The notes beneath the pieces were generated by a model. That model had not been told where the DNA came from. It saw nothing but the letters and a program-made list of their open reading frames with translations, and made no database searches. From a virus (lineage: Duplodnaviria; Heunggongvirae; Uroviricota; Caudoviricetes), in IMG/VR virus record IMGVR_UViG_2548876857_000008: DNA of 35,745 bases; one strand, written 5' to 3'. Position numbers and translations under genes: made by a program. Within the stretch, counting starts at the first letter, position 1. Every line of letters starts with the position of its first letter. This document shows positions 5,304 to 34,971 of this stretch, one piece after another.

Positions 5304-5305
5304 GG

Positions 5306-9492: not shown

Positions 9493-10697
9493 GTATCAGT
9501 TTTGAGCAACTGGTGGGATTGTACAGGCAGATTACTTTCGGTAACGATATGGCCGAAGGTACGCTGGTGCTTACCCCAGAATCCTGCGAGTTGCTCAACG
9601 CTTTGCTTGAGGACACCGATACATATGGGATCTCTCTGGCACAAGGTGAAGTAGTGGCTGGCCAGCAGGTGTCGCTTTTTGTGAACGCCCCAAAGACAAA
9701 GCTAGGTCTGCTATGCCGTAATTTGGCGGCTTTGTTAAAGTCGCCAAAACACCAAAGCGAGGAACCTTCCCGCTACTACCTGATCGACAGCCAATTTTAT
9801 AGTTCGGATGCGCCAACATCTGTAATTGAAAACTACCGCACTATCTTAACATTTCTGCGCCTGCTTAAAGAAAAGTCGGCATACTTTGATACCAGTGCAT
9901 ATGAATGCGTTTTTTTCCGCGCCGATGTATTTAAATTACCTATACGTTACAGTGCAGAAACCGTAGAAAATCTTGATAAAACGACACTCGATGAACTCAT
10001 TCAGCAGTTTTCTGACGACACACACAAAGAGCAGAAACTCTCGCTTTTAATTGAAAGCATCCAGTTAATCGGTCAGGAAACGGAAAACAATAAAGTCTTT
10101 GAGTATGCACTGAAGAACATTGATAAATTAAAAGTTGAGTTCGATAAGGGTTATCGCCTCTTCACTTCTGGGTTCTCATACGAAAAGGTTCTGGATGAAC
10201 TTAGAACCGCCAAAGTTGAAGAAATGGGACGTATCCATAAAGTCTTTTCAGATATCCAAAACCAGATACTGGGTATCCCAGTCGCAACCATTATCGTCGC
10301 GACACAAATCAAGAAAGCAAGTGGTGATGTCTATCAAACCATTATCAATAGCGCAGTTTTTTTAGGGGCCTTTGTTTTTGCTACGTTGGTTATGTTGACT
10401 TTGTTCAACCAGTTACAGACGTTAACTGCTATCAAAGAAGAACTTCGACATAAAAAGACTCAGGTTGATAAAAAGTATGCATCAATAAAAAATGACATTG
10501 ATAGTATCTTTTGCTCTGTACGTAAACGTCTTTGCCGTCAGGTTATCGCGTTCTGGTTTATTATTATGTTCCTTGTTGTCGCTATTATATCGACAGGATT
10601 AATTTACCTATACTGCACATACCCTGAAACATGGAATATCTTGGTTACAAAAGTGATGTCATGGCGGCATCACTTGAGTAATAAGCCCACTCCTTAA
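9489..10697 (+). CDS. hypothetical membrane protein (soluble N-domain of about 270 aa plus two C-terminal TM helices)
   Basis: GTG start overlaps the NdpA-like stop (GTGA). Hydrophobic helices IPVATIIVATQI...AVFLGAFVFATLVMLTLF and VIAFWFIIMFLVVAIISTGLIYLY. No enzymatic motif seen. Confidence 0.65.
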   Translation: MSISFEQLVGLYRQITFGNDMAEGTLVLTPESCELLNALLEDTDTYGISLAQGEVVAGQQVSLFVNAPKTKLGLLCRNLAALLKSPKHQSEEPSRYYLIDSQFYSSDAPTSVIENYRTILTFLRLLKEKSAYFDTSAYECVFFRADVFKLPIRYSAETVENLDKTTLDELIQQFSDDTHKEQKLSLLIESIQLIGQETENNKVFEYALKNIDKLKVEFDKGYRLFTSGFSYEKVLDELRTAKVEEMGRIHKVFSDIQNQILGIPVATIIVATQIKKASGDVYQTIINSAVFLGAFVFATLVMLTLFNQLQTLTAIKEELRHKKTQVDKKYASIKNDIDSIFCSVRKRLCRQVIAFWFIIMFLVVAIISTGLIYLYCTYPETWNILVTKVMSWRHHLSNKPTP

Positions 10698-10758
10698 ACC
10701 CCTTTAAAAGCCTTCCTGCCTACCATTCCGCACACTGCCTCCATCACCCAATGGAGGC
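10693..10758 (+). promoter_or_regulatory. candidate late promoter element (dyad motif plus start-site hairpin) before the lysis genes
   Basis: CTTAAACCCCTTTAAAAGCC at 10693-10712. Perfect 8-bp hairpin GCCTCCAT/ATGGAGGC at 10737-10758 contains the GGAGG site and the first ATG. Confidence 0.45.
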
Positions 10759-10762
10759 ACTT

Positions 10763-11053
10763 ATGAAAACTTCTCTTTTCCCGCGTTTATCCGGCTGGCT
10801 GGTGGCATCGGTGGTGTTGTTCGCGCTGATTGCGCTGATTTCCCCGCAGCAGCTTCCGGTCGTTGTTTACAAACTGAGCCTGATCTCGCTGGCGGCGGTG
10901 CTGGGCTACTGGCTGGATCGCAGCCTGTTTCCCTATGCGCGGCCAAATTATTTTCAGTCAGCGGAAAATGAACAACGTCTCTTTGCCGCCGCCATGCTGC
11001 GCCGTGCGGTGATTGTCGCGGCGGTGTGTCTGGCCGTGGCGATGGGGCTGTAG
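10763..11053 (+). CDS. putative holin or lysis membrane protein
   Basis: 97 aa with two or three hydrophobic helices, immediately before the transglycosylase gene. ATG at 10763 has GGAGG 5 nt upstream; ATG at 10751 is an alternative. Confidence 0.4.
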   Translation: MKTSLFPRLSGWLVASVVLFALIALISPQQLPVVVYKLSLISLAAVLGYWLDRSLFPYARPNYFQSAENEQRLFAAAMLRRAVIVAAVCLAVAMGL

Positions 11054-11055
11054 CC

Positions 11056-11790
11056 ATGACGCTGCATATGTACTGGCCGCAGGTTGTCTGGTCTGTGACG
11101 GCGCTGCTGGGGATGGGAATGGCGCTGGCGCGTCACGGGCAACCGCGCACCGATAAACACAATTTCTGGTACCAGTCGCTGGCGGTACTGATTGCAGGCT
11201 GGCTGCTCTGGTGCGGCGGTTTTTTTAGCCAGGCCAATGCCGCCGAACCGCCCGCTTCCGCCAAACCTTACCGCGCCGAACTGGTGCGTAATGCCCGCGC
11301 GGTATGGGGGATGGATGCGCCTGTCGCCGATTTCGCCGGGCAGTTCCAGCAGGAATCCGACTGGAATCCCGCCGCCCGTTCACCCGTTGGTGCGCAGGGG
11401 ATGGCGCAGTTTATGCCCTCCACTAGCGACTGGATCAGCCAACTGCTTCCCGAACTCCGCGCCCGAGAGCCGTTTAACCCGTCGTGGGCCATCCGGGCGC
11501 TGGTGCAATACGACCAGTGGTTGTGGCAGCGCGTCAGCGCCCGCGATGGTTGCCAGCGAATGGCATTCACCTTAAGCGCCTATAACGGCGGTTTAGGCTG
11601 GGTGAACCGCGATAAAAAGCTGGCGGCGCAGCGCGGGCTGGATGCCGCCGTCTGGTTTGACGCGGTGGCGACGGTCAACGCCGGGCGCAGCGCCGCCAAC
11701 TGGCGCGAGAACCGGGGTTATCCGCAACGCATCCTGTACCAGAACGCGCCGCGCTATCTGTCATGGGGAGGGGCTAACTGTGTTCGATAA
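11056..11790 (+). CDS. endolysin, lytic transglycosylase (SLT domain) with N-terminal hydrophobic segment(s)
   Basis: SLT signature QQESDWNPAARSPVGAQGMAQFMPST (catalytic Glu, AQGxMQ). N-terminus VVWSVTALLGMGMALA and LAVLIAGWLLWCGGFFSQANA suggests a signal-anchor or signal peptide. Confidence 0.75.
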   Translation: MTLHMYWPQVVWSVTALLGMGMALARHGQPRTDKHNFWYQSLAVLIAGWLLWCGGFFSQANAAEPPASAKPYRAELVRNARAVWGMDAPVADFAGQFQQESDWNPAARSPVGAQGMAQFMPSTSDWISQLLPELRAREPFNPSWAIRALVQYDQWLWQRVSARDGCQRMAFTLSAYNGGLGWVNRDKKLAAQRGLDAAVWFDAVATVNAGRSAANWRENRGYPQRILYQNAPRYLSWGGANCVR

Positions 11791-12373
11791 ACTCAAAACG
11801 GCGGGGTTAGCCGCCACGCTGATACTGCTATTCGTCGTGTTTGGCGGGTATTTCGCGTGGCTGCAAGGCCACAAACACGGCTACGAGAAGGCGCAGACTG
11901 AATGCCTGCGCCTGCAAAAACAGCAGGCCAAGGCCGGGCAACGGGCGTTGCAGGAGGAAATAAACCGCAGCCAGCAGCAGTTGATTCACATCCGGGAAAA
12001 CGAGCAGACCTACCTCGCCCGGACAGAGGAACTGACCGCCCGCAACGCCGAACTACAGAGGAAAATTAACGATGTTACGCAGCATTACGTTGACGAAAAA
12101 GGCAAGGCTCATACTGTGGCCTGCGTGTTTACTCGCGGCTTCGTGCAGCAGTACAACGCCTCCCTCGGCGTGTCCGCCCCGGATGTTGCCGCCGCTACCC
12201 GCGACGCTGGCGCGGCCGCCGCAGCCGTTCAGGGCGCTGACGCCCGGTTACGCGCCTCCGGCGTCAGCCAGCGCGACATCCTCGCCAATCTCGCCGACAA
12301 CGGCCAGCGCTGCCAGCAGTTAGCGCTCCAGGTGCGTGGCTTGCAGAACTATATCGCGGAGGTGTCGCGATGA
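11780..12373 (+). CDS. Rz-like inner-membrane spanin
   Basis: GTG start after GGGGAGGGG. N-terminal TM helix LAATLILLFVVFGGYF followed by coiled-coil-like sequence. Contains an embedded ORF. Confidence 0.6.
   Translation: MFDKLKTAGLAATLILLFVVFGGYFAWLQGHKHGYEKAQTECLRLQKQQAKAGQRALQEEINRSQQQLIHIRENEQTYLARTEELTARNAELQRKINDVTQHYVDEKGKAHTVACVFTRGFVQQYNASLGVSAPDVAAATRDAGAAAAAVQGADARLRASGVSQRDILANLADNGQRCQQLALQVRGLQNYIAEVSR
12072..12323 (+). CDS. Rz1-like outer-membrane lipoprotein spanin, embedded in the +1 frame of Rz
   Basis: ATG at 12072 after AGAGGA. Signal peptide with lipobox-like LLAASC, then a Pro-rich mature region. Lies wholly inside the Rz ORF. Confidence 0.6.
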   Translation: MLRSITLTKKARLILWPACLLAASCSSTTPPSACPPRMLPPLPATLARPPQPFRALTPGYAPPASASATSSPISPTTASAASS

Positions 12374-12684
12374 TGTTGCAGATTGACTTCTGGGAGGTGA
12401 TCTCGATGGCGCTGTCGTTTTTGGGCGTGCTGGTCGCCGCCGGGAAGATGCTGCTGACCCAGATTGAGAAGCGCCTCAACGAACGCTTTGAGTCGCTGGA
12501 AGCGGCACGTAAGGAGTCGGAATCCGGCTGGTCACGGCTGGAGCGCGAGTTCCTGGAGTTCCGCGCCGATATGCCGCTGAACTATGTGCGGCGTGAGGAT
12601 TACATCCGGGGACAAACGGTTATCGAGGCCAAGCTGGACGCGCTGTATAACAAAATCGAACTGTCGCAAGGGGGTGGTAAATGA
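12370..12684 (+). CDS. hypothetical small membrane protein (Mu gp25 position)
   Basis: N-terminal TM helix ISMALSFLGVLVAAG; ATGA coupling on both sides. Confidence 0.5.
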   Translation: MMLQIDFWEVISMALSFLGVLVAAGKMLLTQIEKRLNERFESLEAARKESESGWSRLEREFLEFRADMPLNYVRREDYIRGQTVIEAKLDALYNKIELSQGGGK

Positions 12685-12986
12685 TGGATAAAGTACGCCG
12701 TGAGTCGATGCGCTGGAATCTGATGCTGGCGCTGAACAAGGCGCGGCCCTATACCAGCAATGAACGGTTTTTACTGGCGGTGATGCAGGCGATTTACCCG
12801 GATGCCACCGCGCTGGAGCTGCGGCGCGAGCTGGACTATCTGGCCGACCGCCGGATGCTGGAACTGGTGAAGGAGCCGTCCGGCACCTGGTTCGGTGATT
12901 TAACCCGTCTCGGTGTTGATGTGGTTGAGTACACTGTGGACTGCGGCCCCGGCATCGCCCGCCCGCAAAAGTACTGGAGCGAATGA
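12681..12986 (+). CDS. hypothetical protein (Mu gp26 position)
   Basis: 101 aa, coupled to both neighbours. Confidence 0.5.
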   Translation: MMDKVRRESMRWNLMLALNKARPYTSNERFLLAVMQAIYPDATALELRRELDYLADRRMLELVKEPSGTWFGDLTRLGVDVVEYTVDCGPGIARPQKYWSE

Positions 12987-13543
12987 TGGCCAGACGCAGC
13001 ACCATTGACAAACTCCCCGAAGAGGTCAGGCGCTGGCTGGAGCGGGCGCTGACCGACAGCGGCTTCAGCGGTTATGCCGAACTGGAAGCGCTGATGCGTG
13101 AGAAGGGCTTCCTTATCAGCAAGTCAGCCATTCATCGCTACGGCCAGAAAATCGAACGTCGTTTTACCGCCATCCGCGCAGCCACCGAAGCGGCGCGGAT
13201 GCTGACCGAGGGAGCCGCCGACGATCAGGACGCCCGTTCGGAGGCGGTGATTGCGCTGATCCAGACTGAATTGTTTGAGTCCATTGTCCAGTTACAGGAG
13301 GCGGAGGACGGCGAGATTGATCCGCAGGAGCGTGTGGCACTGCTATCGAAGGTGGCGAAGAACGTCGCCACGCTGTCACGCGCCAGCGTCAACCTGAAGA
13401 AGTTTCAGGCTGATATCCGTCGTGAGGCTCGTGAAGAGCTACAGCGCGAACAAGCTGCGGCACTGGAGAAAGAAGCCAAGGCGCAGGGGCTGGGTGAAGA
13501 TCAGGTGCGCTTCTGGCGTGAGAAGATTTTGGGGATTCGATGA
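12983..13543 (+). CDS. putative terminase small subunit (Mu gp27-like)
   Basis: 186 aa, directly upstream of the large terminase; helical and charged. Confidence 0.5.
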   Translation: MMARRSTIDKLPEEVRRWLERALTDSGFSGYAELEALMREKGFLISKSAIHRYGQKIERRFTAIRAATEAARMLTEGAADDQDARSEAVIALIQTELFESIVQLQEAEDGEIDPQERVALLSKVAKNVATLSRASVNLKKFQADIRREAREELQREQAAALEKEAKAQGLGEDQVRFWREKILGIR

Positions 13544-15147
13544 AACCTTTAAGCAGCACCGTCCGTATTGTTGACTGGGAGGAACTGCCGCCCAGAGCCA
13601 GAGATATTCCGGCTGGTTTTAACCCAATGACCGACGGCGTTCTGATGAAACATCAGGTGGATGTCCTGAAAATCAGAAAGTCGATTCTCGCTGTGCCTAA
13701 AGGCCGTCGAACTGGCATCACCTTTGCCTTTGGCTTTGAAGCTGTCCTGACCGCAGCCGCCCGGAAAAGCAGCGGAGGTATGGACGTTTACTACATCGGC
13801 GATACCAAAGAGAAAGGTCTGGAGTTTATCGGTTACTGCGCCAAATTCTCTCGTGTTATTGCCGAACAACAGGCGGATTCTGTCTCCAGCATTGAAGAGT
13901 TCTTGTTTGACGATCAGGACGAGGATGGCAACACCCGCAAAATCACCGCCTATCGTGTCCGCTATGCGTCAGGTTTTCAGACTGTCGCACTATCATCCCG
14001 TCCTGCGAATATTCGTGGTTTGCAAGGGATGGTGATCATAGACGAAGCTGCGTTCCATCAGGATGTTCAAGGGGTACTGGACGCGGCAACGGCACTTCTC
14101 ATCTGGGGGGGTAGGATTGTGGTGATCTCCTCGCATAAAGGAAAATCGAACCGCTTCAACGCCTTTATTATTGATATTGAAAACGGCTTATACGGCGAGG
14201 ATGCAGCGGTTTATACCGTGACTTTCGATGATGCTGTAGCTAACGGGCTGTACGAGCGCGTCTGTTTTATGCAGGGCGAAGAACCTACGCTGGAGGGGAA
14301 AACCGCCTGGTACAGTCGCATCCGTAATGCCTATGGCCCGCGTAAAGCCGCCATGCGCGAGGAACTGGACGCGATCCCCCGCGACGGCAATGGCATCTGT
14401 ATTCCTGGGATCTGGATAGAAGCCGCGATGCCGCCGGGAGACGACCGGACAATACTGCGGCTGACGCTGGATGAGGGTTTCACGGCGAAATCCAGGAAGG
14501 AGCGCGAAGAGTACGTCACCGACTGGATCATGCGTTATCTGGAGCCGGTGATCGCCGGGCTTGATATCAGCCTGCGTTATGCAATGGGGGATGACTTTGC
14601 CCGCCACCGCGATTTTTCCGCCATTGTGCTGATGGCCATCATGCCCAACCTGTACCGCCGCGTGCCGCTGATTATTGAAATGCACAAGGTTCCCACCCGC
14701 CAACAGGAGCAAATCCTGTGGTATCTGCTGCGCGCTCTGCGGTGTTTTTCCGGGGCGATGGATGCCACCGGGCCGGGGCAGACGCTGGCAGAGTATACCG
14801 CCGATGAGTTCGGCACCAGCCGTATCGCGCAGGTTAACCTTAGTCGTTCCTGGTATGGGTTGTGGATGCCAAAGCTGATTCAGGCATTTGAAGATGGCGT
14901 GCTGACATTACCAGCGGATGAGAACGTGCGGCAGGATCTGCATTCCGTCGAGGATATTGACGGTATTCCGATGGTTTCCTCGGTGCGTAAAGAAGACCTT
15001 AAAGACCCGGAGCTGTTCCGCCACGGCGATACGGCTATTGCGCTGGCGCTGGCATGGTTTGCATCTGTCGCCATACATACCGGCCCGGTGACGGTGAACT
15101 CCCGCCGCCGTCGCCAGTCCGCACGATTACTGGAGAACTATCACTGA
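13540..15147 (+). CDS. terminase large subunit (Mu gp28-like)
   Basis: 535 aa between the small-terminase-like and portal genes; P-loop-like PKGRRTGITF and acidic motif VIIDEAAF. Confidence 0.75.
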   Translation: MKPLSSTVRIVDWEELPPRARDIPAGFNPMTDGVLMKHQVDVLKIRKSILAVPKGRRTGITFAFGFEAVLTAAARKSSGGMDVYYIGDTKEKGLEFIGYCAKFSRVIAEQQADSVSSIEEFLFDDQDEDGNTRKITAYRVRYASGFQTVALSSRPANIRGLQGMVIIDEAAFHQDVQGVLDAATALLIWGGRIVVISSHKGKSNRFNAFIIDIENGLYGEDAAVYTVTFDDAVANGLYERVCFMQGEEPTLEGKTAWYSRIRNAYGPRKAAMREELDAIPRDGNGICIPGIWIEAAMPPGDDRTILRLTLDEGFTAKSRKEREEYVTDWIMRYLEPVIAGLDISLRYAMGDDFARHRDFSAIVLMAIMPNLYRRVPLIIEMHKVPTRQQEQILWYLLRALRCFSGAMDATGPGQTLAEYTADEFGTSRIAQVNLSRSWYGLWMPKLIQAFEDGVLTLPADENVRQDLHSVEDIDGIPMVSSVRKEDLKDPELFRHGDTAIALALAWFASVAIHTGPVTVNSRRRRQSARLLENYH

Positions 15148-16625
15148 TGCCACGCGGAATCTACGTTACCCCCACCGAGTTTGTCTCATTCAGCGAGCCG
15201 ACCAAAAGCCTGTCAGAGCAAATCGCTGTCCGCTCGCGCTCGATTGATTTTTACGGGCTGGGAATGTACCTGCCCAACCCTGACCCCATTCTCAAGGCGC
15301 AGGGGCGCGATATCAAAATCTACCGCGAACTGCGCAGCGATCCCTTAGTCGGCGGTTGTATCCGGCGACGTAAAGCGGCGGTGAAAGCGCTGGAGCACGG
15401 TGTCGAACGCGGCAACGCCACGGCGCGGGTGTTTCGCTTTGTGCGTGATCTGTTCGCGGATTTAGATATCGCCCGCATCACCGGTGAAATGACCGACGCT
15501 GTGCTCTACGGCTATCAGCCGTGTGAACTGATGTGGGCGCGTGGCGGCAAATCATGGGCAGTGACCGATGTGGTGGGTAAGCCCCCGGAGTGGTTCCAGT
15601 TCGATATGGAAAACCGCCTGCGCTTTCGCGCCCGTAATGCCGGACTAGAGGGCGAGTTGACGCCACCGTATAAATTCCTGCTGCCGCGTCAGGATGCGAC
15701 CTACGATAACCCGTATGGTTTCCCGGATCTGTCGATGTGCTTCTGGCCCGTGACCTTCAAGAAAGGCGGCATGAAGTTCTGGGTGCGCTTTGCCGAGAAA
15801 TACGGCTCGCCGTGGGTTGTCGGCAAGCATCCGCGTGGTACGTCGCAGGGTGAGATTAACCAGTTGCTGGATTCGCTGGAGGCGATGATTGAGGATGCGG
15901 TGGCCGCTATCCCGGATGACTCTTCGGTGGATATCAAAGAGGCCGCAGGTAAAGCCGATTCCAGCGATATTTACCAGAACCTGATCACAATGTCGCGCAG
16001 TGAGATTTCCATTGCCTTGCTGGGGCAGAATCAGACCACTGAAGCCAGCGCCAACAAAGCTTCGGCGCAGGCCGGGCTGGAAGTGACGGATGATATCCGT
16101 GACGGTGATGCATCCATTGTAACCAGCGCGTTTAACCAACTTATCCGCTGGATTGTGGAACTGAACTTTGGTGCGGTGGACTGCCCTGTGTTCCGTATGT
16201 GGGAGCAGAAAACGGTTGATGAGGTGCAGGCCGGACGCGACCAGAAGTTATCGCAGGCAGGTGTGAAATTCACCCCGCAGTACTGGAAGCGCGAGTATCA
16301 ATTACAGGATGGCGATATCGACGAAACCCCGGCACCTGCGCCAGTGGCATTTGCGGAGGCGGTGACAGCGGATGTCGCCGCGCAGGAGCTGCTTGACACG
16401 GCGCTGGATGAACTGATGACCAGCGGTAAGCTGGACGATACGCTGACGCCGGTGCTGGCTCCCTTGTTTGCGCGGGTACAAAAAGGCGTCGCACCAGCGG
16501 TGCTGATGGGCGAACTGGCGGAACTGTACCCCCAGATGAACACCGACGACCTGACAGAACGGCTGGCGCGTGTGCTGTTTGTGGCGAATATCTGGGGGCG
16601 GCTCCATGAGCGTGACGAGCAGTGA
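15147..16625 (+). CDS. portal protein (Mu gp29-like)
   Basis: About 490 aa following the terminase; ATG at 15147 overlaps the terminase stop. Confidence 0.7.
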   Translation: MPRGIYVTPTEFVSFSEPTKSLSEQIAVRSRSIDFYGLGMYLPNPDPILKAQGRDIKIYRELRSDPLVGGCIRRRKAAVKALEHGVERGNATARVFRFVRDLFADLDIARITGEMTDAVLYGYQPCELMWARGGKSWAVTDVVGKPPEWFQFDMENRLRFRARNAGLEGELTPPYKFLLPRQDATYDNPYGFPDLSMCFWPVTFKKGGMKFWVRFAEKYGSPWVVGKHPRGTSQGEINQLLDSLEAMIEDAVAAIPDDSSVDIKEAAGKADSSDIYQNLITMSRSEISIALLGQNQTTEASANKASAQAGLEVTDDIRDGDASIVTSAFNQLIRWIVELNFGAVDCPVFRMWEQKTVDEVQAGRDQKLSQAGVKFTPQYWKREYQLQDGDIDETPAPAPVAFAEAVTADVAAQELLDTALDELMTSGKLDDTLTPVLAPLFARVQKGVAPAVLMGELAELYPQMNTDDLTERLARVLFVANIWGRLHERDEQ

Positions 16626-17963: not shown

Positions 17964-18011
17964 GCCATTTCTCCGCGCCGGGCGGATGCCCGGCTTCACC
18001 GCCCAACCTGC

Positions 18012-18142
18012 TTTATAAAGATTTATAAAGCCCTTTACGCCCCGATTTTTACCTTCTCTTTCCCCGCAGTGATTAAAGCGCTTTAAAAGCGATTTTCGCC
18101 CGTTTTTATAAAGCTATTCCCTGACGTACTACGGAGGGAATA
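18012..18142 (+). promoter_or_regulatory. candidate late promoter region for the head operon: repeated TTTATAAAG / TTAAAGCGCTTTAA motifs plus start-site hairpin
   Basis: TTTATAAAG at 18012-18020, 18022-18030 and 18106-18114. Palindrome TTAAAGCGCTTTAA at 18073-18086. 8-bp hairpin TATTCCCT/AGGGAATA at 18115-18142 ends in the ATG. This is a 178-bp gap inside an otherwise coupled late region. Confidence 0.5.
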
Positions 18143-19233: not shown

Positions 19234-19244
19234 AGGAGGAAAAA

Positions 19245-21655: not shown

Positions 21656-23060
21656 TTATTTACACGGCGTCGAGACTATCGAGATCGAACGCGGCCCGCG
21701 CCCGGTGCGTACCGTTAAGTCGGCGGTGATTGGTCTTGTAGGAACGGCTCCGGCTGGCCCGATTAACACATCGGTATTGTGCCTGTCAGAGAAAGACGCG
21801 GCGCAGTTCGGCTCGCAGGTTTCCGGGTTCAGTATCCCGCAGGCACTGGATGCGATTTATGACCACGGCGCGGGAACGGTGGTGGTAATTAACGTGGCCG
21901 ATCCGGCAAAGCACAGCGTAACGGCCTCTACCATCGCACGTCGGGTTGATGATAATCATCAGATCAGGCTGGACTATGGCGCGGTCAGTAATGTCGTTTT
22001 GAAGGTGTCGGGCGCGAGTTCAGATTTAAGCCCGGCAAATTATACCGTTGATGCCGGAACTGGCGTTGTTACATGCCCGACGGTTAACGCAGGCGACACG
22101 CTGTTTGCCACATATCGTTATATCGATCCGACAAAAATCACCGCTGCCGATATCATCGGCGCGATCAATGCCGCAGGCCAGCGTATCGGGATGAAGCTGC
22201 TGGAGGATACCTATAGTCTCTATGGTTTTAAACCGAAAATCCTGATCGCCCCGGTGTTCTGTACGCAAAAATCGGTCAGTACCGAGCTGATTGCCCTGGC
22301 GGAAAAGCTGGACGCTATCACCTATATCGATGCGCCAGTTGGCACGACCTTCAGCCAGGTGCTGGCAGGCCGTGGCGCATCCGGGACTATCAACTTCAAT
22401 ACCAGTTCCGAACGCGCCCGTCTGTGCTACCCGCACGTTAAGGTGTATGACTCTGTCACCGACAGCGAACGGCTGGAGCCGCTTTCCTCCCGCGCCGCTG
22501 GCCTGCGTGCCAAAGTGGATCTGGATAACGGTTTCTGGTGGAGCAACTCCAACCAGGAGATCCTCGGCATCACTGGTGTGGAACGTTCGCTGTCGGCGAT
22601 GATTGATGACCCGCAAAGCGAGGTGAATCAACTGAACGAAAACGGCATCACCACCGTTTTCAACAGCTACGGCACCGGGATGCGACTGTGGGGCAACCGT
22701 ACCGCCGCCTGGCCGACCGTTACCCATATGCGCAACTTTGAAAATGTGCGGCGCACCGGGGATGTGATTAACGAGTCGATCCGTTACTTCAGTCAGCAGT
22801 ATCTGGATATGCCGATTAACCAGGCGCTGATTGACGCGCTAACCGAATCGGTGAATGCCTATGGCCGCAAGCTGATTGGCGACGGCGCATTGCTGGGCTT
22901 CGAGTGCTGGTATGACCCGGCGCGTAATGAGCAGACCGAGCTGGCCGCTGGCCATCTGCTGCTCAGTTACAAATATACGCCGCCTCCGCCGCTGGAACGG
23001 CTGACGTTTGAGACGGAAATCACTTCGGAATATCTGGTTAATCTGGAAGGTAAACGCTGA
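21645..23060 (+). CDS. contractile tail sheath protein
   Basis: 471 aa; GTG start 8 nt after AAGGAG. Size and position before the tube gene match a myovirus sheath. Confidence 0.75.
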   Translation: MAANYLHGVETIEIERGPRPVRTVKSAVIGLVGTAPAGPINTSVLCLSEKDAAQFGSQVSGFSIPQALDAIYDHGAGTVVVINVADPAKHSVTASTIARRVDDNHQIRLDYGAVSNVVLKVSGASSDLSPANYTVDAGTGVVTCPTVNAGDTLFATYRYIDPTKITAADIIGAINAAGQRIGMKLLEDTYSLYGFKPKILIAPVFCTQKSVSTELIALAEKLDAITYIDAPVGTTFSQVLAGRGASGTINFNTSSERARLCYPHVKVYDSVTDSERLEPLSSRAAGLRAKVDLDNGFWWSNSNQEILGITGVERSLSAMIDDPQSEVNQLNENGITTVFNSYGTGMRLWGNRTAAWPTVTHMRNFENVRRTGDVINESIRYFSQQYLDMPINQALIDALTESVNAYGRKLIGDGALLGFECWYDPARNEQTELAAGHLLLSYKYTPPPPLERLTFETEITSEYLVNLEGKR

Positions 23061-23584
23061 TGGGCGGAAAAATTGAAGTTAACCGTATTACCAACGCCAA
23101 TATCTATATCAATGGTAATAACCTGCTGGGCCGCGCGGAGGAGATTAAGCTGCCGGATATCAGCATGATTATGCAGGAGCATAAGGCGCTGGGGATGGTC
23201 GGCAAGATTGAGTTGCCCGCTGGGTTCGACAAACTGGAGGGCGAAATCAAGTGGAACAGCTTCTATCGCGAAGTGATGCGCCATGCGGCTAACCCGTATA
23301 AGTCGCTGGCGTTGCAGTGCCGTTCGTCTATCGACCGCTATAACTCAACGGGGCGTATCGATGAAATCCCGCTGGTGACGCACCTGACGGTAATGTTCAA
23401 GAAGAATCCGCTGGGGACGTTTAAGCAACATGAGAACCCGGATTTTTCCAGTGCCTTTAGCTGCACCTATATCAAGCAGGTGGTGGACGGCGAGACGCTG
23501 CTGGAACTGGATTATCTGGCGAATATCTTCAAAGTGAATGGCGTGGATCAGTTGAGCACCTATCGCGCCAATATCGGCGGTTAA
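23060..23584 (+). CDS. tail tube protein
   Basis: 174 aa immediately after the sheath gene (TGATG overlap). Confidence 0.7.
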   Translation: MGGKIEVNRITNANIYINGNNLLGRAEEIKLPDISMIMQEHKALGMVGKIELPAGFDKLEGEIKWNSFYREVMRHAANPYKSLALQCRSSIDRYNSTGRIDEIPLVTHLTVMFKKNPLGTFKQHENPDFSSAFSCTYIKQVVDGETLLELDYLANIFKVNGVDQLSTYRANIGG

Positions 23585-23589
23585 CCACT

Positions 23590-23660
23590 CATTAAAGCTG
23601 TTTAATACTGTTTGTTTCATCCCTCCTCAATACTGTCCTCAGTTCAACACTGAGGACAGT
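23590..23660 (+). promoter_or_regulatory. inter-operon element: CATTAAAGCTGTTTAATACTG motif plus perfect 12-bp hairpin before the tail chaperone gene
   Basis: Motif at 23590-23610. Hairpin ACTGTCCTCAGT-TCAAC-ACTGAGGACAGT at 23632-23660 holds the GAGGA site in its 3' arm, 4 nt before the ATG at 23665. No U-tract follows. Confidence 0.5.
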
Positions 23661-23664
23661 CACC

Positions 23665-23967
23665 ATGACAGACACATTCAAACTGCAATACCCCTTCACC
23701 GCACCCTCCGGGCAGCGTATCGACGAACTGCAACTGACTCGCCTGAAGGTCAAAGATATGCGTGCGGCTCGACGTATCAGCGATAAACCTGAAGACTGGG
23801 ACGAACCGCTACTGGCGGCGATGACCGGACTGGTGCCGGAAGATTTGGCCGAAATGGATCTTGCTGACTATCAGGCGTTGCAGAAACGATTTCAGAACAT
23901 GCTTGGGCTGGGCGGCGAACCCGCAGCAACTGTGGCAGGCGATGGCGCTGCTGGCACGGTGGTTTAG
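23665..23967 (+). CDS. tail assembly chaperone (P2 gpE / lambda G-like)
   Basis: 100 aa between the tube and tape-measure genes. An overlapping +1-frame ORF extends to 24067. Confidence 0.6.
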   Translation: MTDTFKLQYPFTAPSGQRIDELQLTRLKVKDMRAARRISDKPEDWDEPLLAAMTGLVPEDLAEMDLADYQALQKRFQNMLGLGGEPAATVAGDGAAGTVV

Positions 23968-24041
23968 GTTTCAACCAGGGGAAATTGACAATCTGGCGGT
24001 CGGGGATTTTGAACGCTGGCTTGATGAGGCCAGCGCCCAGA

Positions 24042-24320
24042 TTAAGCGTGAGAACGGCGGCGGTTGAGTACCCATTCGGTGATGCTGCCGACAAGGGCGA
24101 ACAGGAAGGCCAGCAGGGAAATGGCCGGGCTAAATAACCAGCCTGCCAGTGCGGTCAGCAACAGTACACCAACGCTGCCCACACCAATCATCAAAGTTGC
24201 CGCCAGCCCATCATGGCAGTTATGCAGGGTATAGCTGACCACATGAAACAGCGCCCAACCATCCACCGCCACAATCGCGGCGATCAATAGTCCTTTAAAC
24301 AGGGTTAATGCGTTGTTCAT
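24042..24320 (-). CDS. small integral membrane protein encoded antisense within the tail module (moron candidate)
   Basis: 92 aa with three predicted TM helices and a basic C-terminus (NRRRSHA). AAGAGG sits 4-5 nt before the ATG at 24320. It is the only minus-strand gene in the late region. Confidence 0.5.
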   Translation of the reverse strand: MNNALTLFKGLLIAAIVAVDGWALFHVVSYTLHNCHDGLAATLMIGVGSVGVLLLTALAGWLFSPAISLLAFLFALVGSITEWVLNRRRSHA

Positions 24321-24360
24321 AACGCCTCTTTTTTATTGTGGTTTTCCGGGAGTGTAAAGC

Positions 24361-27135
24361 GTGGCTGCTGAATTTTCAATCGGTGTTCTTATTAGTGGCG
24401 CAGTCACTGGCGCATTTCGTTCTGCTATTGGAGGAACCCAGCGAGCGTTAAACGATCTCCAATCCACCACGCAGCGATTGCAAAACCGTCAGGCCGCGCT
24501 GACGCAGGCGATGACACGTTACGGGCAGGCAGGTATTAGCAGTACATCCCGGCTCAACAACGAATTACAGCAAGTCAGTCGCACAATGGCGCGGCTGGAA
24601 AGCCAGCAAAATAAATTATCCAGCGCAACGGCGCGTAGCCAGGCGATGCGTTCGCAGCGGATGGATCTTTACGCCCAGGGTGCAGAGACCTACGCGCTGG
24701 CCAGAACGATGTCGGCCCCTCTGGTGTCGTCAGTGAAAACCTATGCGGGGTTTGAATCAGGGCTGCGGGATATTGCCGTGACCGGGGATCTGGACAGTAA
24801 ACAGGAAGCGGCGATCGATAACGCCATCCGTCAGGCAGCGGGTAAAGTCAACCAGTTGCAGGAAACGCTACTCGGTGGCGTGAATCAACTGGTAGCCGAT
24901 GGTATGAACCCGGAGAAAGCGGCGGGAATGGTGGATTTGCTTGGTAAAACCGCCACGGCCACCAAGGCTGATATGACCGATCTGGCAAAAATGACTTTCG
25001 CTTTTAGCGATGCCTTGAAGATTAGCGATGGAAAGGAGATGCAGGAAGCCTTTGCAATGGCAGCGGTCGGAGCAAAGACCGGCTCCTTTGAACTGAAAGA
25101 TATGGCAAAGGCATTGCCTACCCTGACAAAAAGCTTTGCGGCTAAAGGTATTACGGGTAAGGAAGCGATTAAAGAAATTGTCGCCTCTCTCGAAGCTGCA
25201 AAAGGCTCTGGTTCGGCAGAAGAAGCCGTGACCAATATGACCAACTGGATGGGCGCAATGACGCGCGGCGATACCGTCAAGAAATATGAAAAGGCGGGCG
25301 TAAATTATGAAGCGTCGATGAAAGATTATGTCGCCAAAGGTTATTCGCAATATGAAGCCTCGCTGATGATTGCTGACCGCTTTATTAAAGGTAAAGGCGA
25401 TGCCTTTATAAAACAGTGGCAGGAAGCGGGGGCACGTGGCGACGGTGAGTCGCAACAGAAGTTGATGGAGTCGTTTGGTCTGTCGGAGGTTTTTACCGAT
25501 ATTCAAACCGTCAATCATCTGCTTTCCATGCGTCAGAACTGGGATCAATATCAGTCGAATAAAGCCAAAATGGGTGACCCGGCATCACAGAATGTGCTGG
25601 ATACTGATTTTAATAAGCAAAACGATACCCTGGAAGCCCGCTGGCGAAGCTCGCAGGTAGCGATGAATGAGATGGCAATCAGTATCGGTAGTTCTCTACG
25701 CCCGGCACTGGTCGAATTATCGGAAAGTCTGCTGCCAGTAATGAGTTCTTTTGCAAAATGGCTTTCAGCTAACCCGGAGATGGTGGCGAATATAGCCAAA
25801 CTACTGGCCGGATTTATTGCATTCAAAGCGGCGACGGTCGGTAGCAAGCTGGCTCTGAATATGATGTTGTCGCCGTTTGTGGATTGTATTAAAGCGGTAA
25901 CGTTGCTTAACACGAAATGGCTGCTTCTGAAAACAGCCTTTTCGTCTGGCGGCAAACTGGCAGGCATCACTAAGTTGTTCGGCTCGCTAGCGCGTGGTGC
26001 CTTGTCATTAGGCAAAATCCTTGCCGGTGGATTAATGCGTGGCGTGATGATGGCCGCCCGTGCCGTAATGTTTCTGGGCCGTGCGCTGCTGATGAATCCC
26101 ATCGGGTTGATTATCACTGGCATCGCGGCAGCCGCGTATCTGATTTATCGCTACTGGGGGCCCATTTCCGGCTTCTTTAAACGGCTGTGGGCGCAGGTCA
26201 CGGTAGCGTTTCGCGGGGCGTGGAGCGGCATCAAAGGTATCTGGAGTGGCGTGTCGGGCTGGTTCTCTGGTATCTGGGCGCAAATCAAAACCGCATTCAG
26301 CGGTGGGATTGGCGGCGTGGCAAAGCTGATTACCAACTGGTCGCCGCTGGGCCTGTTCTATAAAGCTTTTGCCGGAGTGATGAAATACTTCGGTATCGAT
26401 ATGCCGAAGAACTTTACCGATTTTGGCGGTAATCTGATTAACGGTCTGATGAACGGTATCGGCAATGCGCTGACTGCTGCGAAAGAGACGGTCGTTAACT
26501 TTGGTAACTCGATTTCAGGCTGGTTTAAGGAGACGCTGGGCATTCACTCCCCGAGCCAGGTGTTTGCCGGGTTCGGCGACAATATCGCGCAAGGGGCCGC
26601 TATCGGTATCAACCGCACCGCCCCGGATGCGATTTCCGCCAGCCAACAGATGGCGGCGGCGTTAATTCCCCCGTTGCTGGATATCCGCGTTCCGGGTCTG
26701 GATGTTGCCGCAATACCACAGCGACCACCTGTTGCGGGTGGCATCGCGCCTCAACTCAACCCACTGCTGCCGAAAGTCGCACCGCCCACCATTGTGCCAG
26801 CCCCCACTGCGGCGGGTATGGCGCTGGCTGGGGCGGCGGGCGCGGTGTTATCTCGCCGCAAACCGCTGTCGCCAGTGCCACCAAAACCCGCCGTACCTGC
26901 CGTTCCTGAACTGCCGAAAAGTACCGCACCAGCCGCCAAAGGCCGCAATGCCAGTGCGCGTGTGCCGGGGCAGTCATCCGGGGTGAATGTGACCTTTGCG
27001 CCGCAAATTACCATCAAAGGCGCGGCATCGACGACCGAGGGCGAAATCACCTCTGCGCTGAAACTGAGCCTGCACGAACTTGAAAAGATGATGGAGCGGA
27101 TTATGGCGCGTCGTGAACGCCGGGAGTATGCATAA
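24361..27135 (+). CDS. tail tape measure protein
   Basis: 924 aa, largely helical, with central hydrophobic Gly/Ala segments and a Pro/Ala-rich C-terminal region. GTG start after GGGAG. Follows the chaperone gene. Confidence 0.85.
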   Translation: MAAEFSIGVLISGAVTGAFRSAIGGTQRALNDLQSTTQRLQNRQAALTQAMTRYGQAGISSTSRLNNELQQVSRTMARLESQQNKLSSATARSQAMRSQRMDLYAQGAETYALARTMSAPLVSSVKTYAGFESGLRDIAVTGDLDSKQEAAIDNAIRQAAGKVNQLQETLLGGVNQLVADGMNPEKAAGMVDLLGKTATATKADMTDLAKMTFAFSDALKISDGKEMQEAFAMAAVGAKTGSFELKDMAKALPTLTKSFAAKGITGKEAIKEIVASLEAAKGSGSAEEAVTNMTNWMGAMTRGDTVKKYEKAGVNYEASMKDYVAKGYSQYEASLMIADRFIKGKGDAFIKQWQEAGARGDGESQQKLMESFGLSEVFTDIQTVNHLLSMRQNWDQYQSNKAKMGDPASQNVLDTDFNKQNDTLEARWRSSQVAMNEMAISIGSSLRPALVELSESLLPVMSSFAKWLSANPEMVANIAKLLAGFIAFKAATVGSKLALNMMLSPFVDCIKAVTLLNTKWLLLKTAFSSGGKLAGITKLFGSLARGALSLGKILAGGLMRGVMMAARAVMFLGRALLMNPIGLIITGIAAAAYLIYRYWGPISGFFKRLWAQVTVAFRGAWSGIKGIWSGVSGWFSGIWAQIKTAFSGGIGGVAKLITNWSPLGLFYKAFAGVMKYFGIDMPKNFTDFGGNLINGLMNGIGNALTAAKETVVNFGNSISGWFKETLGIHSPSQVFAGFGDNIAQGAAIGINRTAPDAISASQQMAAALIPPLLDIRVPGLDVAAIPQRPPVAGGIAPQLNPLLPKVAPPTIVPAPTAAGMALAGAAGAVLSRRKPLSPVPPKPAVPAVPELPKSTAPAAKGRNASARVPGQSSGVNVTFAPQITIKGAASTTEGEITSALKLSLHELEKMMERIMARRERREYA

Positions 27136-28052
27136 TGTTTGCCGTACTGGGTGATATTGAGTTTGAGGTGGTGACCTACTGGGACGGCTTTGATGCGTCG
27201 TTTGGTATGGATTATGCCGAACATGCCCGCATTGAAGGCAAACCGGGGTTGCAGTTTATCGGCGAAAAGCTGGATGAAGTGAGTATCAGCCTAGTGTTCC
27301 ACGATCACTATTGCCAGCCGGATGTTGAACTGGCGCGACTGCGTGACGCAATGGTGGCGCATCAGGCGCTGGCGCTGGTATTTGGCAACGGCGACTATCG
27401 CGGCTGGTTTGTGGTAACCGATATTCGGGCAACCAGCCAGCAGACCGATGGCCTCGGTAATGTGCAGGCGTTAAGTGCAGAGCTGTCGCTGAAGGAGTAC
27501 ATCGGCGATCCGAAAAATCCCCTGACGCCACCGGCTGTGTCCGGGGACGATCCGAATATCGATTCGTGGTCTGACGATGCCGACGACAGTTTTTCCGGCA
27601 GCGATATGTTCGACGGCCTAAGCGATATTACCGACGGGCTGGATGCGGCATCGGACGCGCTGGATGCCGCAGAGCAGGCGTTCGATGAGGCAGTGTCGTG
27701 GGCGGAAGATGTGGTGGAGCAAGTTGAAGATGCGATTGATGACGTACTTTCACCGCTGGAGGACGTTCTCAATGAGGTGTTATCACCACTCGATGAGGTG
27801 ATGCAGGCGCTGGAGGGTATCATGGGCGGCGGCGTACTGACCGATGCTCTCGGCGAGGTCGGGCAAGTCGCCTCGCAGATTTACGATGAAATCAGCAGTA
27901 CGTTGACCGGGCTTGACGGTATCACCCCCGACAACTTTGCCGATCTGTTCTCGCAGGCACTGGACGTGGTGCGCAACGGTCAGTCATTGATGGAAGCGTG
28001 TTCTCCCGCCGTTAGCAGGCTGGCGGCGGCAATCATTACCAGGAGCGTGTGA
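27135..28052 (+). CDS. tail protein (Mu N / DNA circulation protein-like)
   Basis: 305 aa directly after the tape measure. Acidic C-terminal half with short repeats (VLSPLEDVLNEVLSPLDEV). Confidence 0.5.
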   Translation: MFAVLGDIEFEVVTYWDGFDASFGMDYAEHARIEGKPGLQFIGEKLDEVSISLVFHDHYCQPDVELARLRDAMVAHQALALVFGNGDYRGWFVVTDIRATSQQTDGLGNVQALSAELSLKEYIGDPKNPLTPPAVSGDDPNIDSWSDDADDSFSGSDMFDGLSDITDGLDAASDALDAAEQAFDEAVSWAEDVVEQVEDAIDDVLSPLEDVLNEVLSPLDEVMQALEGIMGGGVLTDALGEVGQVASQIYDEISSTLTGLDGITPDNFADLFSQALDVVRNGQSLMEACSPAVSRLAAAIITRSV

Positions 28053-28270
28053 TGGGCGGCTGGATTGAACATATCACCACCGAGGGCGAGCGCTGGGATA
28101 ATCTGGCGTTCCTCTATTACGGCGATCCAATGGGCTATGAGCGCATCATTGTCGCTAACCCCCATATTGCGATCACGCCGACACTGGCCTCCGGGCTGCG
28201 GTTGCGTATTCCGGTGATCGGCCCGATGCAGGTGCATAACGTTGATGAGGTGCCGCCGTGGCTCAGGTAA
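28052..28270 (+). CDS. tail protein X-like (LysM-like small tail protein)
   Basis: ERWDNLAFLYYGDPMGYERIIVANPHIAITPTLASGLRLRIP resembles the P2 gpX family. AGGAG 6 nt before the ATG. Confidence 0.6.
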   Translation: MGGWIEHITTEGERWDNLAFLYYGDPMGYERIIVANPHIAITPTLASGLRLRIPVIGPMQVHNVDEVPPWLR

Positions 28271-29358
28271 ATGCCGTTATCACCCCCGTTTTCACCCTGT
28301 TTTACGGGCAGAAAGATATCACTCACGATATTGCTCCTTTTGTCCTGAGCGTGACGTATACCGACAGTCTCAAGAGCGAATCGGATGAAATCGACGTGCA
28401 GGTGGAAGACACCGCCGGGCGCTGGCGCGAGGCGTGGTATCCGGGCAAAGGCGATATGCTGATGCTGAAGTTGGGCTATCAGGGCGAAGCGTTGCTGGAC
28501 TGTGGAGCGTTCTCCATCGATGAGATTGAGCTGGGCGCACCGCCGGATACGGTATCCATTCGCGGCGTGGCGACGTCGGTCAACAGCGCTCTGCGTACCG
28601 CCTCCAGCGAGGGCTACGAAGAGACGACGCTGGATGCGATTGCCAGCCGTATCGCGCAGAAGCATGGTCTGAAGCTGGTCGGTCAGATAGAGCCGATTAC
28701 CATTGACCGGGTGACGCAATACGCGGAAACCGACGTCGGTTTTCTGAAGCGGCTGGCGGGTGAGTATGGTTATGCGCTGAAAGTCACCACTGGCGAGCTG
28801 GTGTTTTCCCATCTGGCTACACTGCGAAGTAACGCGCCGGTGACGACGCTGACGCCGCAGGATGTAGCGCGCTGGTCGCTGCGCGATACCATCAACCGCA
28901 TCTATAAGGATGCAAAGGTGGCGCATCAGAAGAGTAAAGAGAAGACGCTGGTGACGTACCACGCCGACGGCCCGCCGACCACGGAGACGCGTGGTAAATC
29001 GACCAGCGCCGATACGCTCAAGGTCAATGCACGGGCGGCGGATCAGGGGACGGCGCAGGTGAAAGCCGAGGCGGCGCTGGATGACCATAACGAGTATCAG
29101 CAGACCGGTTCGCTCTCGATGATGGGCAACACGCAGCTTATCGCCGGGAACAAAATCACTCTCGACGGGTTCGGCGTGCTCTCCGGGGAGTGGCTGATCA
29201 CCAGCGCCCGTCACTCGTTTGACCGTTCATCGGGCTACAGCACCGAAATTGAGGTCGGACGTGGCCCGAAAACGGCCTCCGGCGGCGGGAAGAAGAAAAA
29301 ACCGGATACGCTGACCGTCTATCACCCGGACGGCCCACCCACCCAGGAGAAAAAATGA
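28258..29358 (+). CDS. baseplate hub protein (P2 gpD / Mu P-like)
   Basis: 366 aa at the Mu P position; GTG start overlaps the upstream gene. Confidence 0.65.
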   Translation: MAQVNAVITPVFTLFYGQKDITHDIAPFVLSVTYTDSLKSESDEIDVQVEDTAGRWREAWYPGKGDMLMLKLGYQGEALLDCGAFSIDEIELGAPPDTVSIRGVATSVNSALRTASSEGYEETTLDAIASRIAQKHGLKLVGQIEPITIDRVTQYAETDVGFLKRLAGEYGYALKVTTGELVFSHLATLRSNAPVTTLTPQDVARWSLRDTINRIYKDAKVAHQKSKEKTLVTYHADGPPTTETRGKSTSADTLKVNARAADQGTAQVKAEAALDDHNEYQQTGSLSMMGNTQLIAGNKITLDGFGVLSGEWLITSARHSFDRSSGYSTEIEVGRGPKTASGGGKKKKPDTLTVYHPDGPPTQEKK

Positions 29359-29846
29359 AAGGCGTCACCCGACAGACCGGGATTATCAGCGATATCGACG
29401 AGGTGAAGGTGTGCGTGCGCGTCACCCTGCCGGAATGCGACGATCTGCGCACCAACTGGCTCCCCATCCTGCAACGCAATACGCAGGACAATAAGGACTA
29501 CTGGCTGCCGGATATCGGCGAGCAGGTGGAGGTGCTGCTGGATGATAACGGCGAGGATGGCGTGGTGCTGGGGGCGGTCTATTCGTCGGTGGATACGCCA
29601 CCGGTGACGGACAAAGACAAGCGCTATGTGCGGTTCTCCGATAAGGCCGCGATTGAGTACGACCGCAAACAGCACCAGTTGACCATTAATGGCGGCATTG
29701 AAAAAATCGTGATTGAGGTGAAAACCAGCGTCAGCATCACCGCGCCGCAGGTGGTCATCACGGGTAATGTCCGCGTCACCGGCAATATCAGTGCGTCAGG
29801 CTCTATCATCGACGCTGGCGGCAATACCAACCATCACTCTCATTAA
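29355..29846 (+). CDS. baseplate spike protein (P2 gpV / Mu gp45-like)
   Basis: 163 aa with a C-terminal beta-rich VxGN repeat region (ITGNVRVTGNISASGSIID). Confidence 0.7.
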   Translation: MKGVTRQTGIISDIDEVKVCVRVTLPECDDLRTNWLPILQRNTQDNKDYWLPDIGEQVEVLLDDNGEDGVVLGAVYSSVDTPPVTDKDKRYVRFSDKAAIEYDRKQHQLTINGGIEKIVIEVKTSVSITAPQVVITGNVRVTGNISASGSIIDAGGNTNHHSH

Positions 29847-29892
29847 AGCGGTTTAATACCGCCACTTTAGCAACGGGGGCGACAATGCCCCC
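29841..29892 (+). promoter_or_regulatory. inter-operon element: CATTAAAGCGGTTTAATACC motif plus GC hairpin abutting the gpW-like start
   Basis: Motif at 29841-29860 overlaps the gpV-like TAA stop. Hairpin GGGGGC-GACAAT-GCCCCC at 29875-29892 ends at the ATG at 29893. Confidence 0.5.
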
Positions 29893-34825: not shown

Positions 34826-34909
34826 GGGAAACAGCGACCAGAGTCAGGCGGTCACCTGACTCTGACCAGCTAACCCGCAGGAAGTGTCTGCGAGCCGCCC
34901 AGGGCTGCC

Positions 34910-34925: not shown

Positions 34926-34971
34926 CCAATAAGCCTAACAGTTTTTCACATACTGAAAAAGGTTTGCAGAA

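Follow-up and report, generated by a model that had tools for sequence, protein, structure and literature searches.

What switches on the late genes of a BcepMu-like transposable prophage? The question is raised by the window analysed here, a stretch of 35,745 nucleotides (nt) from a tailed virus (IMG/VR record IMGVR_UViG_2548876857_000008) with the gene content of a BcepMu-type prophage. In this window a short A/T-rich dyad recurs ahead of four late operons, and each copy is followed by a hairpin close to a start codon. The four sites are very probably late promoters of the sigma-70 type, activated by the only Mor-family protein that the prophage encodes. This assignment draws on sequence inference together with the published biochemistry of phage Mu, and follows from a Mu-like operator of 5+6+5 base pairs (bp), a -10 hexamer at the same distance as in Mu, the lack of a -35/-10 pair and a conserved recognition helix in the activator. 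For the hairpins we propose, more tentatively, that they silence the first gene of each operon on read-through RNA. Taken as a whole, the combination of Mor-dependent late promoters with this hairpin model is likely to be the best explanation of the locus.

Proposed operators, -10 hexamers and the Mor-family activator

The dyad TTAAA-N4-TTTAA (TTAAANNNNTTTAA) lies at 10694-10707, 18073-18086, 23592-23605 and 29843-29856, always on the plus strand, and the window holds no further match on either strand. Shuffles that preserve dinucleotide composition contain 0.02 copies on average, and none of 100 reached four; the four dyads listed by a first-pass annotation of the sequence are thus real. The form given there, TTAAA(G/C)C-N-(C/G)TTTAA, matches as well, but the conserved core is TTAA-N6-TTAA, accompanied by a fixed -10 hexamer that had gone unnoticed. 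Written as an oriented 16-mer, TTAAASCNSTTTAAWA, the motif fits all four plus-strand sites with zero mismatches. Operator 1, ahead of the lysis operon, spans 10693-10708 (CTTAA-ACCCCT-TTAAA, centre 10700.5); operator 2, ahead of the head operon, 18072-18087 (ATTAA-AGCGCT-TTAAA, centre 18079.5); operator 3, ahead of the tail chaperone/tape-measure operon, 23591-23606 (ATTAA-AGCTGT-TTAAT, centre 23598.5); and operator 4, ahead of the baseplate/fibre operon, 29842-29857 (ATTAA-AGCGGT-TTAAT, centre 29849.5). In this order, 10, 11, 13 and 13 of their 16 positions are identical to the operator of the Mu promoter Pm. The genes that follow encode a holin (Pfam Holin_2-3), a homologue of the BcepMu gp32 / Mu I head protease-scaffold, a tail assembly chaperone (Phage_TAC_7) and gpW (GPW_gp25), which bears out the earlier statement that the dyads precede lysis, head, tail-chaperone and baseplate genes.

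In each proposed promoter the dyad occupies the -35 region and a recognisable -10 hexamer follows, likewise on the plus strand. At the lysis operon this is CACACT (10731-10736), which begins 30.5 nt from the dyad centre and would place the transcription start at 10743 (A) or 10744. The head operon has AAAGCT (18110-18115), a weak match with a predicted start at 18122/18123, and the chaperone operon AATACT (23629-23634), with a predicted start at 23641 (A) or 23642. The fourth hexamer, GACAAT (29881-29886), begins 31.5 nt from the centre, 1 nt above the family norm; the A of the gpW ATG (29893) follows as the seventh base past its end. Start positions were derived with Mu Pm as the yardstick, together with the 6-8 nt that usually separate a -10 hexamer from the start. 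A consensus scan found no canonical -35/-10 pair at the four sites and no -35 hexamer. Because the tail genes are P2-like, we also considered late promoters of the P2 Ogr/Delta type, which carry the dyad TGT-N12-ACA upstream; the window contains five matches to it where 6.4 are expected, none of them near the four sites, and this class was rejected.

The candidate activator is encoded at 20-427 on the minus strand, by the terminal gene of the early operon. Its product matches Pfam Mor (E = 1.7e-39) and the PHROG family 'late transcriptional activator' (2.4e-39), and shows 29% identity with Mu Mor and 31% with Mu C. It is the sole Mor/C member in the window, where tblastn with Mu Mor, Mu C and the window's own protein found no second copy. 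BcepMu-like Mor homologues keep the GGQxxYxPxG linker and the helix-turn-helix (HTH) helix SLQWIYKV, and this recognition helix is conserved in the homologues of those clades that share the operator core.

We postulate that Mor binds the 16-bp operator, in which 5-bp arms, (A)TTAA and TTAA(W), would be contacted on either side of a G/C-rich 6-bp spacer. The operator centre would lie about 43 bp upstream of the start, in the usual place of a -35 element, and Mor bound there would bring RNA polymerase to a weak -10, NANNCT followed by G, with a C/T-rich discriminator and a purine start beyond it. The transcripts begun in this way would be those for lysis and packaging, for head and tail, for tail chaperone and tape measure, and for baseplate and fibres. 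With Mor as the single activator of the late promoters, the cascade would have two tiers, early and late, as against the three of Mu.

Conservation among BcepMu-like relatives and comparison with phage Mu

The window was compared with a 91%-identical E. coli prophage, PhiKM, KP12, Pseudomonas Komp_PAO1_1, BcepMu, phiE255 and 80 IMG/VR loci, the latter retrieved with a capsid alignment as query (a single-protein query gave close relatives only). Capsid identity to the window is 64-66% for PhiKM and KP12, 54% for Komp_PAO1_1 and 42% for BcepMu and phiE255, and BcepMu-like prophages were found in Salmonella, E. coli, Citrobacter, Serratia, Photorhabdus, Pseudomonas and Burkholderia. Across 89 related loci from enteric bacteria, Pseudomonas and Burkholderia, one composite element, TTAA-N6-TTAA with a NANNCT(G) hexamer starting 30.5 nt from the dyad centre, stands at the same four gene starts and nearly nowhere else. 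All six named relatives carry the dyad at these gene starts, and the E. coli prophage has exactly the four sites of the window. A motif search across related phages, suggested in the first-pass annotation and run here over 3.56 Mb on both strands, returned 270 composite matches 5' of the four gene classes against 7 elsewhere. The spacing between operator and hexamer is the same in 264 of the 274 operator matches at these gene starts; the spacing longer by 1 nt occurs in 8 of the 42 gpW (bpW) sites.

An information profile of 62 non-redundant sites has an invariant T-A-A at -5.5 to -3.5 from the dyad centre and T-T-A-A-w-A at +3.5 to +8.5, with a G/C-rich middle and a pyrimidine-rich stretch just 5'. 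The block at +30.5 to +36.5 reads N-A-t-r-C-T-G (A in 60, T in 60 and G in 55 of the 62 sites), and is followed by a C/T-rich stretch and then by a purine at +42.5 in 50 of the 62. A position weight matrix (PWM) trained without the window's own clade gives exactly four matches per complete genome, all in the late orientation. It recovers three sites in the window, missing the fourth with its spacing longer by 1 nt, and finds nothing comparable in 20 shuffles of the window; the homologue of operator 4 in relative L001 scores 32.7. The only one-mismatch copy of the dyad, TTAAACAGGGTTAA, at 24295-24308, 5' of the tape-measure gene, was judged to be due to chance, since it scores under the PWM threshold, lacks a correctly spaced hexamer and has no counterpart in the 91%-identical E. 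coli prophage.

Mu Mor binds two 5-bp inverted repeats around a G/C-rich hexanucleotide, a 16-bp element at -51 to -36 centred at -43.5, and Pm has a -10 but no -35 (PMC4390567, PMC4287176). In the Mu genome we locate this element just after mor, at 9173-9188 (AGTAAAGCCGGTTAAT, AGTAA-AGCCGG-TTAAT). Numbering these positions as -51 to -36 reproduces the -57G and -54A published for mutants, and the Pm hexamer TATCCT starts 30.5 nt from the element centre. The window promoters therefore resemble Pm in the 16-bp imperfect dyad of 5+6+5 with a G/C-rich spacer in the place of the -35, in a -10 hexamer that begins 30.5 nt off the dyad centre without a -35, and in a Mor/C-family activator encoded at the end of the early operon. 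They differ from it in their NANNCT(G)-type -10 with a C/T-rich discriminator. The activator shares no more than about 30% identity with either Mor or C, and, unlike in Mu, it would on our reading serve four late structural and lysis promoters directly, without a separate C tier.

Mu C binds a related dyad, also centred at -43.5, in four late promoters (PMC2582627). The number of late promoters is thus the same, and in both phages the first two precede the lysis genes and the I-type head protease gene, whereas promoters 3 and 4 of the window precede the tail chaperone and gpW and those of Mu precede P and mom. The C-type dyad itself is different; read by eye upstream of com/mom it is TTAT-N6-ATAA, which we take to be the general C consensus. 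According to published work, Mor and C are not interchangeable. The first-pass annotation had proposed activator-dependent late promoters after the example of C in Mu. The activator dependence is strengthened by the single Mor gene, the family-wide composite element, the Pm geometry and the missing -35, while the fitting model is Mor at Pm, not C. Mu (L089) also contains, within 10440-10480 and 17990-18056, the candidate -10s TAGACT-G (lys) and CAAACT-G (I), which on a reading of the sequence resemble the family hexamer.

Hairpins at the proposed promoters and their possible role

A repeat finder places a perfect inverted repeat 19-29 nt after each dyad, all on the plus strand. The lysis hairpin (TGCCTCCAT/ATGGAGGCA, 10736-10759) has 9-bp arms at 10736-10744 and 10751-10759, with the holin ATG at 10763. 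The head hairpin (TATTCCCT/AGGGAATA, 18115-18142) has 8-bp arms at 18115-18122 and 18135-18142, the second of which spans the Shine-Dalgarno sequence (SD) GGAGGG and has as its last base, 18142, the A of the ATG, while the chaperone hairpin (ACTGTCCTCAGT/ACTGAGGACAGT, 23632-23660) has 12-bp arms at 23632-23643 and 23649-23660 ahead of an ATG at 23665. The 3' arms of the lysis and chaperone hairpins hold the SDs GGAGG and GAGGA, respectively. The gpW hairpin, GGGGGC/GCCCCC (29875-29892; 6-bp arms at 29875-29880 and 29887-29892), encloses the -10 hexamer in its loop and ends one base ahead of the ATG, which has no SD at a usable distance. RNA folding of the lysis, head, chaperone and gpW hairpins gives -14.8, -13.9, -19.6 and -14.2 kcal/mol, with z-scores against shuffles of -4.4, -3.5, -5.2 and -3.3. 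The earlier description of a hairpin after each dyad, containing the SD or abutting the start codon, is upheld by these perfect arms and z-scores. No U-tract or T-run follows any of the four and a terminator scan found no match at them, so that intrinsic terminators were rejected; Rfam gave no match in the window at gathering thresholds.

The hairpins stand in a close register to the promoters. At the first three, the 5' arm consists of the end of the hexamer, with the conserved CTG, and the discriminator, and the 3' arm consists of the SD followed by CAG; the predicted transcription starts fall at the 3' end of the 5' arm. In keeping with the first-pass annotation, which drew on the lack of U-tracts, the hairpins resemble translational control elements and not terminators. 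Since the 5' arms coincide with the -10 and discriminator, however, Mor-initiated transcripts should lack the hairpin, and any such control would act on read-through RNA only. RNAs folded from the predicted +1 reach -1.8 to -4.9 kcal/mol with z > 0 and are essentially unstructured. Across 108 unique family sequences the 5' arm begins 5' of +1 and ends at about -2 to +4, relative to predicted starts, a range that covers the 95 unique lys, head and chap sequences; median free energies are -8 to -14 kcal/mol for read-through RNA as against 0 to -2 from +1.

Conservation extends to the pairing itself. In the head class, four of the nine stem pairs show compensatory changes, and 97% of pairs are formed as against 31-53% when the arms are slid, a result matched by none of 500 shuffles. 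The chaperone stem of close relatives has undergone a compensatory change from CTCAG/CTGAG to CTCAT/ATGAG, and BcepMu keeps the gpW hairpin with a different stem, GCGGC-AACATG-GCCGC, directly before its ATG. In Mu, upstream of I, a 7-bp hairpin, CTGCTCA/TGAGCAG, starts 2 nt past the candidate hexamer and reaches almost to the SD, so that Mu itself may have the hairpin arrangement too.

The gpW site has an arrangement of its own. The ATG right after the hairpin is, in all clades, the only in-frame start before the conserved WQPAL motif, it has no SD, and it falls at the predicted +1 in 12 of 13 unique sequences. Since the seventh base after the hexamer is the A of this sole possible start codon, with no SD, the gpW mRNA from its own promoter is predicted to be leaderless. 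A known example of a leaderless mRNA is that of lambda cI transcribed from PRM, and the likeness lies in a predicted start at the A of the AUG and in the lack of a usable SD. This start-at-AUG arrangement is conserved from enteric to Burkholderia phages. Unlike lambda cI, gpW is a virion baseplate protein and not a regulator, and its leaderless state is purely a prediction.

Our model for the hairpins, to which we give a little less than an even chance, is that they silence the first gene of an operon on read-through RNA only. RNA initiated at the promoter would lack the 5' arm and be open to ribosomes, whereas RNA reading through from upstream would fold and hide the SD, or, at gpW, would present a hairpin abutting the SD-less AUG. 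Read-through would come from the repressor-side operon in the case of the holin and from the preceding late operon in the other three. The holin hairpin would accordingly shield the lysogen from read-through out of the repressor-side operon, and a terminator scan predicted no terminator between that operon and the holin. BcepMu has a primary transcription start (L009 ~11243) 21 nt upstream of gp20 in differential RNA sequencing (dRNA-seq) of uninduced Burkholderia cenocepacia J2315 (PMC4603805 Table S3), which represents lysogen transcription pointing towards the holin.

A somewhat bolder extension, and one that we hold with correspondingly less confidence, is that promoter choice gates translation of the first gene of each late operon throughout the family, together with a leaderless gpW mRNA, from Burkholderia to enterobacterial phages. 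The -10/discriminator DNA of the Mor promoter would then double as the anti-SD arm, and only Mor-initiated transcripts would be translatable. A comparable device is known from the T4 genes e, soc, 49 and I-TevI, in which upstream-initiated transcripts hide the ribosome-binding site while transcripts from internal late promoters are open (PMC3014915). As at T4 gene e, the SD or AUG pairs with a segment upstream of or at the late start, here a predicted one, and a lysis gene is among the genes guarded. T4 late promoters are of the gp55 type (TATAAATA), whereas those of the window would be of the sigma-70/Mor type, so that the resemblance is one of mechanism and not of family membership. The window has the arrangement at every late-operon start; in T4 it is found at scattered genes with mapped starts, those of the window being predicted.

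A terminator-like hairpin, complete with T-run, lies directly against the operator or overlaps it in PhiKM, KP12, BcepMu, phiE255 and Mu Pm (for instance GGGGCTCCGGCCCCTTCTTCTTAATC, GGCCCGCTTCGGCGGGCCTTTTTTAATC and AAAGCCGGTTAATCCGGCTTTTTTT; L008 ~10935-10960, L009 ~24500-24535, L089 9176-9200). The chaperone promoter of the window has no such terminator-like hairpin and carries the longest SD hairpin (12 bp). One idea considered was that, at the chaperone promoter, hairpins are weaker where a terminator lies upstream; as a simple rule this fails across clades.

Several observations speak against the model as set out above. PhiKM-type phages keep the holin hairpin although their upstream gene is divergent and offers no obvious source of read-through; the lysis-promoter hairpin of BcepMu excludes the SD; and PhiKM and BcepMu, with terminator-like hairpins directly 5' of the chaperone operator, keep the SD hairpin there all the same. 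Leaderless translation is usually inefficient in enterobacteria. On the side of the promoters, the head hexamer AAAGCT makes a poor -10, and TATAAA (18107-18112) overlaps it 3 nt upstream. We disfavour TATAAA as the -10, as it lies 3 nt off the family spacing, whereas AAAGCT retains the A at -11 and the T at -7 in the same +30.5 register as at the other sites; a relative (L004) in which TATAAA has become TGTAAA while AAAGCT is kept also counts against it. Finally, the J2315 data (PMC4603805 Table S3) contain no transcription start at the four late sites of the uninduced BcepMu prophage. This is expected without Mor, yet it is no positive evidence.

Two other accounts of the hairpins have to be weighed, and both appear unlikely. 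The promoters might act as described but start upstream of the hairpins. In that case the late mRNAs would include the hairpins, with a role as constitutive dampers or switches of translation or in stabilising the 5' end. The hairpins are indeed stable, conserved and SD-containing, Com is annotated in the Mu record as a translational regulator of Mom, and the holin hairpin of PhiKM-type phages, kept without an evident source of read-through, would fit such a role. What argues against upstream starts is that the hexamer at +30.5 to +36.5 is the sole conserved block between operator and hairpin, with nothing resembling a -10 further 5', that the same spacing of operator and hexamer in Mu Pm gives a start at +43.5, and that the 5' arms extend into the hexamer and cover the conserved CTG.

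It is about equally improbable that the hairpins serve the transcripts arriving from upstream, as 3'-end stabilisers, RNase processing sites or weak attenuators, and that the pairing with the SD is incidental to G-rich and C-rich composition. Such a function would account for a hairpin at every operon boundary of the window, where intrinsic terminators are missing, and for the BcepMu lysis hairpin and all gpW hairpins, which pair with no functional SD. It would not explain why the 3' arm is exactly the SD plus CAG in three of the four classes and in most clades, why the position of the 5' arm relative to the -10 hexamer is constant, or why the hairpin is kept even where a real terminator precedes the operator.

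A third account, for which we see little prospect, has the inverted repeats act as DNA, through cruciform extrusion or altered melting at the -10 and discriminator, and so couple the promoter to supercoiling or replication. One arm always lies over the discriminator, the hexamer sits in the loop at gpW and at two BcepMu promoters, Mu middle transcription is reported to need DNA replication (PMC2582627), and a role of the sliding clamp in Mu late transcription is reported in a recent study (PMC12867686). Loops of 5-16 nt and G-U pairs in the stems nevertheless fit RNA better than DNA cruciforms, and the partner arm is the SD in most cases. That the dyad is bound by some other protein, be it the phage HTH repressor, the MarR-like regulator, the NA37 nucleoid-associated protein or host IHF, Fis or H-NS, is hardly credible: the motif is A/T-rich and the phage encodes further DNA-binding proteins, but the dyads share up to 13 of 16 bases with the Mu Mor operator, in the same 5+6+5 layout and at the same distance from the -10. 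The motif is restricted to the starts of late operons, where it invariably has the late orientation, and is missing from the early control region, and clades with the same operator core also have a conserved Mor recognition helix.

Other features of the window and meaning for the family

The early operon runs leftward on the minus strand, with genes from 7331 to 20. Its members include a small HTH protein, a MarR-like protein, a MuB-like ATPase, DUF3164, GemA and, at the end, the Mor-family activator. The open reading frame (ORF) at 3558-5312 on the minus strand is assigned to the transposase because the 91%-identical E. coli prophage has a DDE-type transposase annotation in the corresponding place. 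The plus strand begins with an HTH_3 repressor-like gene, the gene for the NA37 nucleoid protein and a gene of unknown function, and then the holin. From there on it encodes an SLT endolysin, a spanin, terminase, portal and head proteins, P2-like tail and baseplate proteins and a Dam methylase.

Two of the operators are overlapped by coding sequence, as the TAA stop of the upstream ORF 9489-10697 (10695-10697) lies inside the left TTAAA half-site of operator 1 and that of gpV (29844-29846) inside the left half-site of operator 4. Within the 3' end of ORF 9489-10697, just 5' of operator 1, there is also a 14-nt imperfect inverted repeat, TTACAAAAGTGATG/CATCACTTGAGTAA, at 10645-10681.

Around operator 2, extra copies of TTTATAAAG had been reported as additions to the dyad. 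Those at 18011-18030 and 18105-18113 are real, but they are two different things. The third copy, at 18105-18113, shares bases with the -10 region of the head promoter and is confined to the close relatives of the window. The upstream pair belongs to a palindromic element, GCTTTATAAAGATTTATAAAGCCCTTTACG (18010-18038, plus strand), which is separate from the operators and not a copy of them. It lies in the central intergenic region, a long gap that separates the G-like gene from the I-like one, and, at 18.0 of 35.7 kb, sits in the physical middle of the genome. TTTATAAAG is present within 260 nt upstream of the head gene in all 84 of 84 family loci, including those from Pseudomonas and Burkholderia, its commonest form being CCTTTATAAAGGCTTTACAG. 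In the Mu record a gyrase cut site is annotated in the equivalent gap (17879/80). The GCTTTATAAAGATTTATAAAGCCCTTTACG element could be an analogue of the strong gyrase site or the site of a second regulator.

The window dam gene (34972-35745), at the end of the baseplate/fibre operon, is preceded by a structured leader of about 145 nt (34826-34971) that is homologous to the dam leaders of relatives. With five sequences, RNAalifold predicts 34 pairs, of which 13 show compensatory changes, and one helix pairs the region just before the start codon; Rfam holds no match to the leader. We consider it a candidate cis-regulatory RNA for dam translation. In PhiKM-like and Serratia-like relatives, a fifth Mor-type operator with its hexamer, on the opposite strand, drives the structured leader and dam (L066 ~897-912, minus strand; L045 ~425; L075 ~407; L021 ~362; L013 ~398). 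In the window the leader is present and this operator is absent.

Promoters dependent on Mor/C-type activators are already known; it is their definition for the BcepMu-like family that is new, and in the literature searched we found no published description of BcepMu-like late promoters or of a Mor binding site in them. To judge from the sequences, one Mor homologue can suffice for tasks that Mu divides between Mor and C. The composite motif defines a testable late regulon of four promoters per genome, five in the relatives in which it drives dam, and offers a means of annotating operon starts in hundreds of prophages. Should the hairpin geometry prove correct, it would extend the device known from T4 gene e to a sigma-70, activator-dependent system, and would provide a natural case in which to follow how promoter choice controls translation and how leaderless mRNA is used in enterobacteria.

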